From the IMG/VR virus record IMGVR_UViG_2706794677_000007: 4,427 bases of DNA. One strand, written 5' to 3'. Positions 1 to 4,427 of this stretch are shown here, piece after piece. A program made the position numbers and the translations under genes. The stretch's first letter is position 1, and every line of letters starts with the position of its first letter. The notes beneath the pieces are model-generated. The model was not told the DNA's origin, made no database searches, and saw nothing but the letters and a program-made list of their open reading frames with translations. Source of the stretch: a virus. Its lineage: Duplodnaviria > Heunggongvirae > Uroviricota > Caudoviricetes.

Positions 1-1
1 G

Positions 2-76
2 CTGTCGTTCTCAAAATCGGTGGAGCTGCATGACAAAGTCATCGGGCATTATCTGAACATAAAACACTATCAATAA
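2..76 (+). CDS. insB: IS1 transposase InsB, C-terminal fragment (5' end outside window); translates ...[24 protein letters not shown], stop TAA at 74-76
   Basis: Hand translation of frame 2 gives the characteristic InsB C-terminus and stops 15 bp before the IS1 terminus. Confidence 0.8.
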   Translation: MSFSKSVELHDKVIGHYLNIKHYQ

Positions 77-685
77 GTTGGAGTCATTACCTGCGCCCCC
101 CTGTGGAATGTAGTAATAACGTTCCATAACGCGGGCACGCCATATTTCCAGATTTTCAATATCTTCACCGTCTGTAATGGTGTCAGCGTACCCTGTGGAC
201 GGCAGACCACTGACGGGTGTTCCCAGTTGCATGGCAATACCATCATCCGTATTCCCCGCCGATCCCGGTTCGTCTGCCACAACAGGCACCCGGAGAAGAC
301 CATCGGCTGCGGTCACCGTCGCCGTCGTGGTAAAGGTCACCTGATTATCACGCTGGATCTGCGTTCCCGCTGGCAATACCGGCGTCCCCTCTACGCCATC
401 CCAGCGCACAAATCCCCGGGCTGCCACCGCTTCTTTTCGCGGGCAGCGTTTGATTCTGGCGTGCCGGTACAGCCAGTCTTCATCACACACGTCCGGTAAC
501 AGATTTCTGGCAAGATAATCGATATACCCGTACAACGTGTGTACGGCTGCAGCCTGTACACGGGCATACACTTCCGCATCCATACGACGAAGCAGCGTAT
601 CCTGCTCAAAGCGGGTTAATAAATCGCTCCGGATCATAGAAATAAGTTGCGGGAGGCCGGGGCGATAAAACTGACTGTCAGCCAT
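11..685 (-). pseudogene. Baseplate J-like protein (Mu gp47 family) interrupted by IS1. Native coding sequence is 92-685 (about 198 codons); the last about 26 codons (11-91) are read from the IS1 end and are not native.
   Basis: ORF-track protein begins MADSQFYRPGLPQLISMIRSDLL...YARVQAAAVHTLYGYIDYLARNLL, typical of baseplate J-like proteins. The ORF runs into IS1 at 91 and stops at 11-13 inside it. 224 aa is much shorter than typical baseplate J proteins (about 350 aa, from memory). SD-like GGAG sits 9 nt upstream of the ATG (685), and the start overlaps the gp46 stop (ATGGCTGA). Confidence 0.7.
69..91. repeat. IS1 terminal inverted repeat (IRR, about 23 bp) of the left copy
   Basis: Terminal sequence ...ATCAATAAGTTGGAGTCATTACC equals the IS1 right-end repeat; the extent of about 23 bp is from knowledge of IS1. 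Confidence 0.75.
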
Positions 686-1088
686 TCAGTTCACTCCAGA
701 TATCATCAAAAATAATGTTGTGAATATTGCCGTCACGCTGGTAAATGGTAATGGCAAGTGCCAGCGAGTCTGTCCCGGTCCGGACAGCGTTAATATCAAG
801 ACGGGAAGCAACACCATCCTCCACCATCCACGCCAGCGCCTCACGGACATAATCTCTGGCAAGCTGCGGGGTTTTATTTGTCAGCTTGCTGCGTCGCAAC
901 AGATACAAACGCGACCCCGTGCGATCATTCTGAACCGCAGGCCAGGTATCCCCCCACCATCCAAATATCCGTGGTGCATCATCACGCCCGGCACGCCGCC
1001 ATGTAAAAAGCGAAATAATCACAGCACGCGTCAGAAGGTCGATCGAAGCCCCGGTCGACACGGGTCGCCCGTTAACATTAATCATCAT
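678..1088 (-). CDS. Phage Mu gp46-family baseplate protein
   Basis: 136-aa protein with a GWWGD motif and overall resemblance to the phage GP46 family; sits between gp45 and gp47 homologs as in Mu. Start is 5 nt after the gp45 stop. Confidence 0.75.
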   Translation of the reverse strand: MMINVNGRPVSTGASIDLLTRAVIISLFTWRRAGRDDAPRIFGWWGDTWPAVQNDRTGSRLYLLRRSKLTNKTPQLARDYVREALAWMVEDGVASRLDINAVRTGTDSLALAITIYQRDGNIHNIIFDDIWSELNG

Positions 1089-1093
1089 GATTT

Positions 1094-1441
1094 TCAGCCC
1101 ATCGGTTGATCCGNNNNNNNNNNNNNNNNNNNNNNNNNNNNNNNNNNNNNNNNNNNNNNNNNNNNNNNNNNNNNTTCCCCACGTTTCAGTCCTTTCAGCC
1201 GGTAACGTCTGTCAGCCACGACCACAACCACACCATGAGAACGATCGCCCGCCGGAAATAAAGCAACGCCCTCAGCACCGTTCTGTGCGGCAGATGTAAA
1301 ACCATAAGGTTCAAGGTGCTCAACGTGTTGTTTCTGATCTCCGGCTATCATTTTCAACCCTACAGACTGACACTTTCTGGCGGAATCCACCGCCGTGATG
1401 ACAGCCCGGGAAATCAGATTACGAAGAGAAAACCCGTTCAT
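1094..1441 (-). CDS. Phage Mu gp45-like baseplate assembly protein V (spike), containing a 61-nt unresolved N block (1114-1174) that stays in frame
   Basis: Protein MNGFSLRNLISRAVITAVD...EHLEPYGFTSAAQNGAEGVALFPAGDRSHGVVVVVADRRYR resembles the gpV/gp45 family. Strong SD (GAGGAGGA) upstream of the ATG at 1441; start overlaps the P stop by 23 nt. Confidence 0.7.
   Translation of the reverse strand: MNGFSLRNLISRAVITAVDSARKCQSVGLKMIAGDQKQHVEHLEPYGFTSAAQNGAEGVALFPAGDRSHGVVVVVADRRYRLKGLKRGEXXXXXXXXXXXXXXXXXXXXXDQPMG
1114..1174. other. Run of 61 N (unresolved or masked bases) inside the gp45-like gene
   Basis: Literal n characters in the sequence. The flanking coding sequence is in the same frame on both sides, so the run appears to preserve true length. 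Confidence 0.95.
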
Positions 1442-2501
1442 CAGAAATCCTCCTCAACATTTTTTTCTTCCTGGCGGTAACAGGCTCGGGGAGATAAGCA
1501 TCTGCCGGGCCAACCCGTAATTCAGTCGTCGTGCCCCGGTCGTCCTGGTTATAGGTAACTTCTGCGATCACCAGTTCATCATTATCAAAATTATTCAGCG
1601 GGTCGAAAACGATGACAGATAACCCCGGACGCCATAACGCGCCACTGCCCTGCCGCCAGCCCTGAACCGTATATGTTGTCTCACGGGTAAGCGCAGCCCG
1701 TTGGCGCGCTTCAAATTCACAACGGGCCTTACAGGTTGCTGTCGTTGCTGTGCCTGACTGCTGAATCAACAAAGGGCGATAACGGGTCACGCCACTGTCC
1801 TGAATGGTCTGACGTATTGCGGCAATGGTGGCCTCACCAAAATCATCGTCGTTGCCCGGGCGCTGCCCACTGACCTGATATTCAGAAAACCGCTCTCTGA
1901 TGCTTCTTTCCGTGTCACAGGAAAGAATATTCTCTCCCAGCACCAGCACCAGCGCCGTCGCCGCTTTACCTGTTCCGGGTTTTCCCAGAACCAGTCGCCC
2001 GCATTCATCGTCATAAGCCAGCGTCTGAACCTGCCCCAGTAACCGGTTAAGACAATCGGCAACGGTTTCGCCGTGTTCCGGCTGGGCATCAATCACCGCT
2101 GTCTGCGGCACGCCAGCATCAACAACGGTGATGCCAAATGGCGCAGCCAGTTCACTGACTATTCTGAGCAGGTTTTTTCCGCTCTGCTGGAGTGGCAAAG
2201 CAGAGCAGTCAACCAGATCGGCTGTTTTGCTTCGCCCGACAATTCCCATGCTGACGCTGCTGGCGTCATAACGAAGCGGTAGTGCCTCCACATATCCGGT
2301 GAGCACAGGCTCATCCCCGATAAGCACTTCAACCAGCTCACCATTTTTTATCCGGGGTTGATAATCCCGGCTTCCGGGCCAGCGGGTGGTAATGGCAACA
2401 TTAAAATCCCGGGCAATACGGTTAATGCCCGCACTGATACGGACGGATGTCCAGCCGCCCCATTCGCGACCGGAAACCCGAAGTAAAACGGTATCATTCA
2501 T
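1419..2501 (-). CDS. P: Phage Mu P (gp44)-like baseplate hub / tail protein (P2 gpD family)
   Basis: 360-aa protein MNDTVLLRVSGREWGGWTSVRISAGINRIARDF... resembles Mu P / phage late control D family; lies immediately downstream of the N homolog with ATGA start/stop overlap at 2498-2501. Confidence 0.8.
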   Translation of the reverse strand: MNDTVLLRVSGREWGGWTSVRISAGINRIARDFNVAITTRWPGSRDYQPRIKNGELVEVLIGDEPVLTGYVEALPLRYDASSVSMGIVGRSKTADLVDCSALPLQQSGKNLLRIVSELAAPFGITVVDAGVPQTAVIDAQPEHGETVADCLNRLLGQVQTLAYDDECGRLVLGKPGTGKAATALVLVLGENILSCDTERSIRERFSEYQVSGQRPGNDDDFGEATIAAIRQTIQDSGVTRYRPLLIQQSGTATTATCKARCEFEARQRAALTRETTYTVQGWRQGSGALWRPGLSVIVFDPLNNFDNDELVIAEVTYNQDDRGTTTELRVGPADAYLPEPVTARKKKMLRRISDERVFSS

Positions 2502-3889
2502 CTGACGGGTACCCTTAATGCCCTGACCGGAACAAAGCCCGGATGAGAGATGGCATTTCGATCCAGGATATCAGTTTCACGGGACGCATCGTCGTACCAT
2601 GACGCAGCCAGAACAAGCGCAGGCAGAACTTCCGCTGGCGTTCGCTCTGCGGTTTCCTCCGTCTGAACCAGACGCGCCTGAATATCCCGGTTCAGTTCTG
2701 TACGTAATGACGTCAGCTGAAAAAACAGCCTGTCATCCGCCGTACGCCTGAGCTCCTGTTCAATCGCCGCGTTCAGCGATTTGCGTATGATGGTGAGATT
2801 TTCCCGCGTGGGTGGTTGCGCTCTCTCATCCTGTCCTGTGCTGGCTGCCACGCTGTCAAGTGCCGGATGAGAAACGTGAATAATATCGGACTGACGTTCA
2901 GTGGAACCACCAACAGCCACAACCGCCTGCTGATTTTTCACCAGGCTTCCGGGTTGTGGCAGTGAAGTGACCGCCCTTGTGGCTTCGCTGATTGCCGTCG
3001 TCCGGATGACAGCAGCCACAAGGTTTGTCTGCTGTTTTTGCCTGATAACCGATGCGGAATCTGTGGGCCACACCGCACGCGGTGCCAGTCCTGGGTCCAG
3101 CGTAATGCCGGACATTGTCGTTATGGACTGCACCAGATCCTGTGTGTTATCCACCAGCCGGGTTCCGGCCCGCCAGGTATCCTGCAACGTATGCACAAAA
3201 TCACTGGCAACCGACGGCGGCATCAGAATGACGGATAAATCGCCCTGCAGTAGTCTCGCTCCGGCAGAAACAGCCGAATTAACCATTTTGAAAGCTGTCT
3301 GAACGGTTCCCAGCATATCGGTCGTCCGGGCAATAACATCGTTCTGAATAAAGTCCGGTATTCCCGCGAGATCAAAATCGCCGAACATGTCTTCAATCAA
3401 CTCATCCAGGAATACGGACGACTCCTCCAGTTTTCTGGCGGTTGCAGCTCCGGCGACCGGAAATGACAGTTCCCCGCTCTCAACAAACTGAAATGAAACC
3501 CGGCACATACGGCCTTCAGTGCCGGAGTGAGAAACGGTCACCTGCCCGTCAATACAGCCCTGCATTTCACCGAACTGCGGATGGATCAGCGTCCCCGGCC
3601 CGGCGGTTTCAATCGCTGTAATCAGCCTGTCGCGCTGCTCTGCGTAATCATCACCAACGAGATACGCATTAATCGTCAGCCGTCGCGTGGCACGCCCGAG
3701 ATCTTCCGTGTACGGTTTGTCACGGTTTGGGTATTCATGGACCTGAACGCGGCGTCCGAACGAACCCTCGTCGCTCTCCACCGAAAACGGAACGCCACGA
3801 AATGAAGCGTCGTAAAGATTATCGCGCCAATTGATACCTGAAGATGCAGAAAAGAGTGAAGAAAGAGAAGGTAAAGAAGGTAAGTCCAT
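2498..3889 (-). CDS. N: Phage Mu N (gp43)-like DNA circulation protein
   Basis: 463-aa protein MDLPSLPSLSSLFSASSGINWRDNLYDASFRGVPFSVESDEGSFGRRVQVHEYPNRDKPYTEDLGRA... resembles the Mu DNA circulation protein family. SD GGAG (3895-3898, minus strand) 5 nt upstream of the ATG; N-P-gp45-gp46-gp47 order matches Mu. Confidence 0.8.
   Translation of the reverse strand: MDLPSLPSLSSLFSASSGINWRDNLYDASFRGVPFSVESDEGSFGRRVQVHEYPNRDKPYTEDLGRATRRLTINAYLVGDDYAEQRDRLITAIETAGPGTLIHPQFGEMQGCIDGQVTVSHSGTEGRMCRVSFQFVESGELSFPVAGAATARKLEESSVFLDELIEDMFGDFDLAGIPDFIQNDVIARTTDMLGTVQTAFKMVNSAVSAGARLLQGDLSVILMPPSVASDFVHTLQDTWRAGTRLVDNTQDLVQSITTMSGITLDPGLAPRAVWPTDSASVIRQKQQTNLVAAVIRTTAISEATRAVTSLPQPGSLVKNQQAVVAVGGSTERQSDIIHVSHPALDSVAASTGQDERAQPPTRENLTIIRKSLNAAIEQELRRTADDRLFFQLTSLRTELNRDIQARLVQTEETAERTPAEVLPALVLAASWYDDASRETDILDRNAISHPGFVPVRALRVPVR
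3866..3883. repeat. Perfect 9-bp tandem duplication (AGAAGGTAA x2 on plus strand; TTACCTTCT x2 on coding strand) encoding LPS-LPS at the N-terminus of the N homolog
   Basis: Read directly from 3866-3874 and 3875-3883. Confidence 0.8.
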
Positions 3890-3894
3890 ACTGT

Positions 3895-3898
3895 CTCC
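3895..3898 (-). promoter_or_regulatory. Shine-Dalgarno sequence (GGAG) for the N homolog
   Basis: Minus strand reads ...TTTTTTTATAGTGGAGACAGTATG. Confidence 0.6.
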
Positions 3899-3903
3899 AC
3901 TAT

Positions 3904-3927
3904 AAAAAAACCGCCAATTTCTGGCGG
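3904..3927 (-). terminator. Rho-independent terminator downstream of the AT-rich ORF and immediately upstream of N
   Basis: Stem 3911-3916 (CCGCCA) pairs with 3922-3927 (TGGCGG), 5-nt loop; on the minus strand the hairpin is followed by T7 (plus-strand A-run 3904-3910). Confidence 0.7.
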
Positions 3928-3935
3928 CTTATATA

Positions 3936-4331
3936 TTAATCATCATTAATATCTTTCATATTCAATTTGCAATTTTCGTAGGTCACTCCCGACTCGCCAT
4001 TAACATTAACTCCAGCTCTGATATTCCCGTTTTCTTTTACATCTACAAAAAACTGGCCTCTTGGCATCTTGAACGCAAATGTAAAACCAACAGTATCTGA
4101 ATCAAAATCATCATCTTTATATATTGGGATCAAAAATGTCATCGTCGCTGGTGATGCATTGTTTGCAAAATCAAATACACCTATACTTTTGCCGAATTCA
4201 TAAGAAGCTTTTCTCAATATAATCGCACCGCTGGCAGAAGGGGATGGGCACGATATCCTCAGTTGTCTGAATCCATCTGTATCCAAGTCAACGTCATTAT
4301 CTGCAGATGTTTTAACGGGTAATGACTCCAA
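3936..4331 (-). CDS. AT-rich ORF of unknown function (131 codons as drawn). Probably the 3' part of a gene whose 5' end was removed by IS1: the TTG start and first 4 codons lie inside the IS1 end, and the non-IS1 reading frame begins at 4317.
   Basis: Long open frame in a region of about one-third GC (hand counts 22/60 and 17/60 on sampled lines, versus about 31/60 in the one tail-gene line counted). Ends at TAA 3936-3938 just before the terminator. No convincing SD before TTG 4329-4331 or the internal ATG. No recognisable family from the protein sequence. Confidence 0.4.
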   Translation of the reverse strand: MESLPVKTSADNDVDLDTDGFRQLRISCPSPSASGAIILRKASYEFGKSIGVFDFANNASPATMTFLIPIYKDDDFDSDTVGFTFAFKMPRGQFFVDVKENGNIRAGVNVNGESGVTYENCKLNMKDINDD

Positions 4332-4340
4332 CTTATTGAT
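4318..4340. repeat. IS1 terminal inverted repeat (IRR, about 23 bp) of the right, inverted copy
   Basis: Reverse complement of 69-91. Confidence 0.75.
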
Positions 4341-4427
4341 AGTGTTTTATGTTCAGATAATGCCCGATGACTTTGTCATGCAGCTCCACCGATTTTGAGA
4401 ACGACAGCGACTTCCGTCCCAGCCGTG
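4333..4427 (-). CDS. insB: IS1 transposase InsB, C-terminal fragment of the right (inverted) copy; 5' end outside window; stop TAA at 4333-4335
   Basis: Minus strand translates ...[30 protein letters not shown]. Positions 4409-4427 continue the IS1 sequence (CACGGCTGGGACGGAAGTC on the minus strand). Confidence 0.8.

Follow-up and report, generated by a model that had tools for sequence, protein, structure and literature searches.

Small exported or envelope-targeted phage proteins are the closest described counterparts of the product of gene X, the subject of this report. The 3' part of X lies in an AT-rich open reading frame (ORF) within a 4,427-nt stretch of viral DNA (IMG/VR record IMGVR_UViG_2706794677_000007, Caudoviricetes), referred to here, at its full length, as the window. 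Cor of phages phi80, N15 and HK022 and Llp of phage T5 are receptor-masking lipoproteins, and Bor and Lom of phage lambda alter the cell surface. The gene 15 product of phage HK97 (gp15), treated by Juhala and co-workers in 2000 and Cumby and co-workers in 2012, is reportedly a superinfection exclusion protein, and Bebeacua and co-workers are said to have found in 2013 that Ltp targets the tape-measure protein. gp15 is a moron product that blocks genome injection in a manner dependent on the incoming tail, and Cor and Lom are exported proteins encoded by tail-cluster add-ons (PMC3594210). Ltp of Streptococcus phage TP-J34 is a superinfection-exclusion lipoprotein that targets the tape-measure protein (PMC3952083). 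According to the criteria of Juhala and Hendrix, as summarised in PMC3594210, a moron is an insert between adjacent genes, deviates in composition, has its own terminator and promoter, and is expressed from the repressed prophage. In the window, the AT-rich ORF is very probably the inactivated 3' part of X, an accessory gene of a phiP27-like prophage in Shigella sonnei.

Intact X shares with HK97 gene 15 the position of an extra tail-operon gene by the tape-measure gene that is absent in close relatives (PMC3594210), and both have a deviant GC content, their own terminator and a small envelope-targeted product. In contrast, gp15 belongs to the YebO family, resides in the inner membrane and is encoded upstream of the tape-measure gene, whereas X carries a signal peptide/lipobox, is predicted to consist of one helix and eight beta-strands, is encoded downstream of the tape-measure gene and has no detected promoter of its own. 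Ltp resembles X in being small, prophage-encoded and exported or lipid-anchored, with its site of action outside the cytoplasm, and offers a precedent for blocking tape-measure-mediated DNA entry. It differs from X, which is predicted to be mainly beta, in its Gram-positive host, its location in the lysogeny module and its architecture, and the two have no detectable similarity. Cor, Llp, Bor and Lom are likewise small exported proteins or lipoproteins encoded by add-ons in or near enterobacterial phage tail clusters, but have no homology to X, which falls in PHROG 5586 only. When X was compared with described exclusion and defence families (PADLOC-DB, YebO/gp15 and Ltp) no match was obtained, with zero hits in PADLOC and zero in Pfam, an outcome that is compatible with an analogous mechanism.

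The AT-rich DNA occupies the 428 bp between the tail gene N and the right-hand IS1 copy (3890-4317) and has a GC content of 0.376, compared with 0.544 over positions 92-3889, and the change in composition is abrupt, at about 3890-3930. A previous reading of the window from its letters alone (the sequence-only reading) had pointed to about 430 bp of low-GC DNA before N, to a sharp shift at a strong intrinsic terminator and to a same-strand ORF of 131 codons, all of which were recovered. The ORF (3936-4331, minus strand) is formally a hybrid, with its initial 14 nt (TTG GAG TCA TTA CC) derived from IS1 and the following 382 nt (3936-4317, minus strand; GC 0.374) representing codons 35-160 and the stop codon of X as a pseudogene fragment. 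In WP_000594909 (P0001), a protein of 160 aa, residues 35-160 are 100% identical to the ORF, and full-length X (residues 1-160) matches PHROG 5586, annotated "unknown function", with E=9.7e-89 against a profile of 161 positions. Because of this identity to a conserved family and the PHROG match, the ORF is not a chance open frame in AT-rich DNA, an outcome that the sequence-only reading had allowed for. The X terminator, a GCCGCCAG-AAAUU-GGCGGU stem-loop followed by U7 (3908-3930, minus strand; RNAfold -14.0 kcal/mol), has a stem of 9-10 bp with five G-C pairs and is retained in the intact alleles; three terminator-like matches were found in the region against 0.4 expected.

The other end of the fragment is set by an insertion sequence, as had been proposed from the letters. 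Position 4317 is the final non-IS1 base, and from 4318 a 91-nt IS1 arm follows. The right-hand IS1 end (4318-4427, minus strand) comprises the 3' end of insB and the right inverted repeat (IRR), with the element running toward 4318, and matches the end of a complete 768-bp IS1 in locus L024; called genes near IS1 match PF03400 (DDE_Tnp_IS1). A left-hand end of the same kind (IRR/insB end; 1-91, plus strand) lies at the opposite border, inverted relative to the right-hand copy, and the two 91-nt arms (1-91 and 4318-4408) are perfect mutual inverted copies. The window thus starts and stops within two IS1 copies, so that only the distal fragment of X is visible in it.

What lies beyond was read from a 61.7-kb viral contig (IMGVR_UViG_2874968258_000001; loci L024 and L053) which is 99.97-100% identical to the window across all shared length. 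The order on this contig is tape-measure gene, X nt 1-110, a 768-bp IS1, X nt 102-483, N, P, Q and V, continuing with W nt 1-595, an inverted 768-bp IS1 and W nt 586-1083. The 9-bp sequence CGTTAAAAC, of which the window holds one copy (4309-4317, minus strand; X nt 102-110), flanks the 768-bp IS1 on both sides in L024, as in a simple IS1 insertion. The second IS1 is also a simple insertion, inverted and with a GC-rich 9-bp duplication, GGGGGCGCA (L053). The suggestion in the sequence-only reading that IS1 favours AT-rich targets therefore agrees with the site in X but not with the GC-rich site in W, and its proposal of a 3' remnant of a foreign gene split by IS1 is borne out by the 9-bp duplication together with an intact 160-codon gene in IS1-free relatives.

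The sequence of events is as follows. A phiP27-like temperate myophage with a Mu-type tail persists in S. sonnei as a decaying prophage, in which a 768-bp IS1 entered X at nt 102-110, giving rise to the 9-bp duplication. The tape-measure gene and codons 1-37 of X remain intact on the far side of IS1. The window copy has lost everything before codon 35: the upstream region, the GTG start with its ribosome-binding site, the signal peptide/lipobox and the first 15 mature residues, which make up half of helix 1. Given these losses, we regard the window copy with high confidence as a non-functional pseudogene and the TTG supplied by IS1 as accidental. Any truncated product would stay in the reducing cytoplasm without a disulfide, as it has no export signal.

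A different possibility, raised by the sequence-only reading, is that IS1 provides transcription and a TTG start for a functional, IS1-dependent protein of 131 aa. The TTG (4331-4329) does sit inside IS1, with an in-frame TAA at 4349-4347, as had been stated. It is not the sole start codon, being the first of nine in-frame start-type codons in the ORF and followed by eight further ATG, GTG or TTG codons. The IS1 end that adjoins the ORF is the insB/IRR end, insAB and the ORF are read in the same direction, and the insB stop (4335-4333, in another frame) lies one base ahead of the TTG, which makes read-through and weak, low-level translational re-initiation conceivable. The ORF is, in addition, open and identical in more than 20 assemblies. 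On the other hand, no promoter-like site was found on either strand over 3700-4427, and no Shine-Dalgarno sequence precedes the TTG or any of the other eight in-frame start-type codons. The hybrid product lacks a signal peptide (best hydropathy 0.04, compared with 2.1-3.1 in all eight full-length relatives) as well as half of helix 1, and the sameness of the ORF among assemblies comes from the clonal nature of S. sonnei rather than from selection, in a prophage that is broken again in W. The InsAB' frame of IS1 is, moreover, rarely translated. A functional hybrid gene is consequently very unlikely, and the window copy is best read as a pseudogene.

The AT-rich sequence could also be the ordinary C-terminal end of the tape-measure gene in this group of phages, since it lies directly upstream of N, where both Mu and phiP27 have that gene, and the sequence-only reading had "expected" the tape-measure gene at this very place. 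That expectation was misleading. The order is tape measure, X, N, and the tape-measure gene is neither replaced nor missing, because it is intact just past IS1 on the 61.7-kb contig. In intact relatives the tape-measure stop precedes a ribosome-binding site and start that belong to X, a separate ORF. X has its own signal peptide and matches neither PF10145 (PhageMin_Tail) nor any other Pfam family, and the full-length tape-measure gene of phiP27 ends 15 bp before N without the AT-rich sequence. We regard this explanation as already refuted, in favour of a broken accessory gene.

The two halves of X are also deposited as separate proteins. The 131-aa product is found as CST24788.1, "Uncharacterised protein [Shigella sonnei]", and is encoded in more than 20 assemblies by contigs of about 4.6 kb with IS1 at their borders. 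Residues 1-37 of X, the complementary fragment, are found as a partial S. sonnei protein of 37 aa. The entries of 131 aa and 37 aa are two halves of one broken gene. Many S. sonnei and S. flexneri assemblies break precisely at these IS1 copies, and assemblies that break at insertion-sequence copies generate orphan "hypothetical proteins" of this kind. The disruption of a Shigella prophage gene by IS1, here accompanied by a second break in W, is routine decay: the same 768-bp element and 9-bp duplication are found in simple IS1 insertions in Shigella prophage genes, and the present one is a standard case with no difference from them. The window itself has very little significance, being an exemplary case of how IS1 degrades prophages in Shigella. 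A literature search for IS1 in a phiP27-like prophage of S. sonnei found nothing.

The intact gene is of greater interest. A search of other genomes for copies free of IS1, as had been recommended, recovered full-length X, the AT-rich stretch being 97-100% identical to DNA in 11 of 5,426 complete Escherichia coli genomes. Here, X is a 483-bp "hypothetical protein" gene (WP_000594909) between genes annotated "phage tail tape measure protein" and "DNA circularization protein". It has a GTG start, a GGAG ribosome-binding site, its own intrinsic terminator and 36-37% GC, and encodes 160 residues beginning MIKPFLMTVAILTSCCAQAK. The start lies 67 bp past the tape-measure stop, a distance of 64-71 bp across intact relatives and 16 bp in one lineage. 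In phiP27, which has no X, 15 bp separate the tape-measure stop from the start of N, and the site is likewise empty in three inspected E. coli prophages with an N gene of 94-97% identity. Among about 50 complete E. coli genomes with the tail module, the site was empty in about 41, an empty site being counted as a single uninterrupted match, and filled by X in 11. E. coli UMNF18 (NZ_AGTD01000001.1) and STEC316 (NZ_CP041431.1) each carry two phiP27-type modules, one filled and one empty.

A second allele (allele 2; that described above is allele 1) with 49% protein identity and 34-35% GC is present at this position in 101 complete E. coli genomes and in phage vB_EcoM-720R4, and ends in a terminator of different sequence (-20.4 kcal/mol). 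A profile search retrieved only 19 relatives of X among 1.84 billion representative proteins, and in a set of 5.8 billion proteins clustered at 90% identity the family accounts for 15 clusters. The genes of three relatives with 35-39% identity (P0038, P0041 and P0042) are flanked by a tape-measure gene and an N-type gene in other tail modules of the Mu type. A further one (P0050), from a contig that stops short of N, is encoded after a tape-measure gene and a HIRAN-domain gene; this order, with the HIRAN-domain gene between tape measure and X in a metagenomic lineage (L060, 2387-2974), suggests that the slot after the tape measure accumulates multiple kinds of cargo. All in all, X directly follows the tape measure in six diverged Mu-type modules and directly precedes N in five of them, which makes it a candidate for an exclusion or conversion screen. 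In phiP27/SfV-type prophages of Shiga toxin-producing E. coli, enterotoxigenic E. coli and Shigella, the interval between the tape-measure gene and N can be recognised as a site for cargo. The moron of SfIV is located at another site, between Q and the lysis genes, according to the SfIV paper.

More distant relatives (P0048, P0049, P0052 and P0056; 23-27% identity) are encoded on phage-plasmids of about 20-39 kb, within the maintenance region (L046, 740-1270; L047, 2919-3413; L048, 2044-2550; L061, 1-452), a setting very unlike the tail operon. Their neighbours are a ParA-type ATPase and a CI-like repressor, with an IncFII RepA in two loci, and in three of the loci X adjoins a toxin-antitoxin pair (Gp49/HTH or MazE/PemK). 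A scan of species genomes returned two loci only, both with allele 1, the taxonomic breadth of X being derived mainly from protein clusters and metagenome contigs.

Some of the related E. coli prophages are themselves degraded. In strain FDAARGOS_944 (L001, 9322-12122) the X copy is the one closest to that of the window (100% identity), and the prophage is likewise defective, as ISEc60 splits the tail sheath gene. In strain FDAARGOS_1077 (L008, 4020-5493) N abuts a 66-aa ORF followed by the major capsid gene, and the genes for head completion, sheath, tube and tape measure have apparently been deleted.

The export signals of X were assessed by rule, not with SignalP. By these rules all eight full-length relatives have an n-region with K/R, a hydrophobic core (best 10-residue hydropathy 2.1-3.1) and small residues at -3 and -1. 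An A-x-A|K cleavage site is common to the full-length members, AQA|K in X, and allele 1 (LTSC) and P0050 match the PROSITE lipobox as well. The window ORF, with a maximum hydropathy of 0.04, fails every one of these export criteria. Two cysteines, C57 and C150, are conserved throughout the family, in the first and last strands, and would form a disulfide. An AlphaFold model of X based on 19 sequences was confident and showed one helix and eight strands; it replaced an earlier run with seven sequences, which was unusable at a mean confidence score (pLDDT) of 48.7. At the level of fold only, the model resembles small up-and-down beta-barrels (de novo designed barrels, Cap15, the lipocalin-like Tp0751 and avidins).

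That the ORF has no recognisable family, as had been noted from the letters, was largely upheld. Neither truncated nor full-length X matched any entry in Pfam, NCBIfam or PADLOC, and PHROG 5586 was the only family found. With all 19 members Pfam returned noise only (E>0.1), PF09864 and YebO being absent, and a profile search of Protein Data Bank (PDB) sequences returned chance matches only (E>0.4). The family is catalogued, in PHROG 5586 and as RefSeq hypothetical proteins, and belongs to no described family. Membership of the lysozyme inhibitors MliC/PliC (PF09864) was considered and rejected: an hhalign comparison with E. coli MliC covered signal peptides only, with a probability of 5%, and none of the 19 members contained PF09864. 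X differs from MliC/PliC and from Brucella PhiA in having SASG directly after the first cysteine and not in a later loop, and in its extra N-terminal helix.

A GC-deviant add-on gene with its own terminator in a tail operon is the classical moron situation, and X was compared with the moron criteria one at a time. It is extra DNA, judged from the 15-bp junction in phiP27 and in the inspected E. coli prophages. Its GC content (0.35-0.40) is below that of its flanks (0.47-0.57) in all four tail-module lineages. A terminator follows alleles 1 and 2 and the gene of the P0038 lineage, with different sequences, and none is present in the P0042 lineage (L057). The sequences of X have diverged further than those of its neighbours, with pairwise identities of 36-49% compared with 52-72% for N and 49-75% for the tape measure, and the ranking of the pairs is incongruent between the genes. 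Within allele 1, dN/dS, the ratio of nonsynonymous to synonymous substitution rates, was 0.26-0.71; with 4-24 substitutions per pair this shows only that evolution in allele 1 is non-neutral, and allele 2 was too similar for the analysis. Among the allele-1 variants (L001-L003, L019-L025; X codons 17-40) the differences within the printed first 40 residues fall at positions 10-40, mostly in the mature N-terminal helix, as in KILTNEEIVSRFISNVKTSAD versus KTLTNAEIASRFVNNVKASAY; pairwise dN/dS reaches 0.6-0.7, the counts being too small for a test of diversifying selection.

What intact X does can be narrowed down to some extent. X is accessory and would act in the envelope, since a protein with a signal peptide cannot join a tail that is assembled in the cytoplasm and since phiP27 dispenses with it. 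From this we infer that intact X is an exported envelope protein that benefits the lysogen or the infected cell. It may represent an uncharacterised exported family of temperate enterobacterial phages that is positionally tied to the tape-measure/N junction of Mu-type contractile tails. Tentatively, and by analogy with HK97 gp15, TP-J34 Ltp, Cor and Llp, the most likely role of the product would be to bar the entry of incoming phages, either in the periplasm or at the outer membrane, by superinfection exclusion or receptor masking. Such a role would best fit the fixed adjacency to the tape measure, the fast divergence and the position in phage-plasmids near toxin-antitoxin and immunity genes. 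More speculatively, X might constitute a new periplasmic or outer-membrane class of exclusion proteins, which would intercept the tape measure or tail tip of incoming myophages and whose divergence would mirror an arms race.

Several observations weigh against this role. The slot is kept across relatives of 35-49% identity, which is equally compatible with a part in the phage's own cycle, and the failure of X to match Pfam, NCBIfam or PADLOC is accompanied by a Foldseek search of the PDB and BFVD in which nothing fell below E=1e-3. No sense-strand sigma-70 consensus promoter was detected upstream of X in L001, L026 or L055, in a consensus scan that is blind to weak or activator-dependent promoters. 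In the P0042 lineage (L057, 5984-6471) X is packed between tape measure and N with gaps of 16-17 bp and no terminator, an arrangement that fits poorly with a recent insertion or with a transcription unit of its own; the GC content of X is still 13-17 points below that of its neighbours there. Because of the lack of a consensus promoter in three lineages and the terminator-free packing in L057, X may be expressed as part of the late tail operon instead of from the repressed prophage, a possibility that weakens the classical picture of a moron expressed in the lysogen.

These same observations suit a late protein that serves the phage itself, co-transcribed with the tail and, from the periplasm, masking the receptor to spare progeny from loss on cell debris, by the logic of Llp of T5, or conditioning the envelope at lysis. 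The undetected promoter in three lineages, the operon-like packing in L057 and the position held across deep divergence all speak for it. We nevertheless think a phage-serving role rather improbable, as X is dispensable in a functional phage, phiP27, and absent from about 80% of the related E. coli prophages, as three of the four tail-module lineages keep a dedicated terminator and a strongly deviant GC content, and as relatives of X occur outside any tail operon, beside maintenance genes. X could, alternatively, be directed at the host, as a lysogenic-conversion factor of the Bor, Lom, PliC or MliC kind, an exported binding or inhibitor protein that would protect the bacterium in its host, for instance against lysozyme, complement or a small toxic ligand. 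This is doubtful, though somewhat less so than a phage-serving role. The profile comparison with MliC aligned nothing beyond signal peptides, a host-directed role leaves the positional link to the tape measure in six lineages unexplained, and in S. sonnei and some S. flexneri X or the adjoining N has been destroyed without apparent cost. Exclusion or receptor masking is therefore retained as the preferred, if tentative, role of X.

Further IS1 insertions were encountered at the locus in other strains. In E. coli PEC122 (L050, 1664-2832) an IS1, annotated by RefSeq as an IS1B family transposase, lies at the 5' end of X allele 2 in the same orientation as in the window. In S. flexneri SFBU1023 (L017, 4561) and E. 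coli ECMA0423 an IS1 at codon 10 of N, just beyond the X terminator, leaves X intact and destroys N. The idea that IS1 is enriched in the AT-rich cassette as a hotspot, based on three independent events, was dropped, as the events were found by searching with X; the GC-rich target of the second IS1 of the window also speaks against it.

The remainder of the window is a minus-strand series of Mu-type tail and baseplate genes, identified with Pfam as a truncated W (W'), V, Q, P and N, in a tail module with 96.7% identity to its counterpart in the Stx2e phage phiP27. N (2498-3889), which encodes a Mu gp43-type DNA circularisation/tail protein of 463 aa, is intact (PF07157, E=3e-36) and has 96.7% nucleotide identity to phiP27 L48. 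It is followed by P (1419-2501), which encodes a Mu gp44-type baseplate hub (PF21683/PF22255/PF21929), and by the Mu gp45-type gene Q (1094-1441; PF06890 in unmasked contigs), which is broken by a masked run of N at 1114-1174. These 61 N correspond to 247 bp in the otherwise identical L024, so that the window falls short of the real locus by 186 bp, and the Q ORF of 115 aa listed for it, which includes undetermined (X) residues, is an artefact, the protein having 177 aa in unmasked contigs. No RNA families were found in the window with Rfam. V (678-1088) belongs to the gp46 family (PF07409, GP46; E=4.5e-33), and the last gene in the series, W (92-685; baseplate J/gp47, PF04865), is represented by its 5' 594-595 nt, up to the second IS1. 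The listed ORF at 11-685 is accordingly a W'-IS1 hybrid, the final codons of which lie in IS1.

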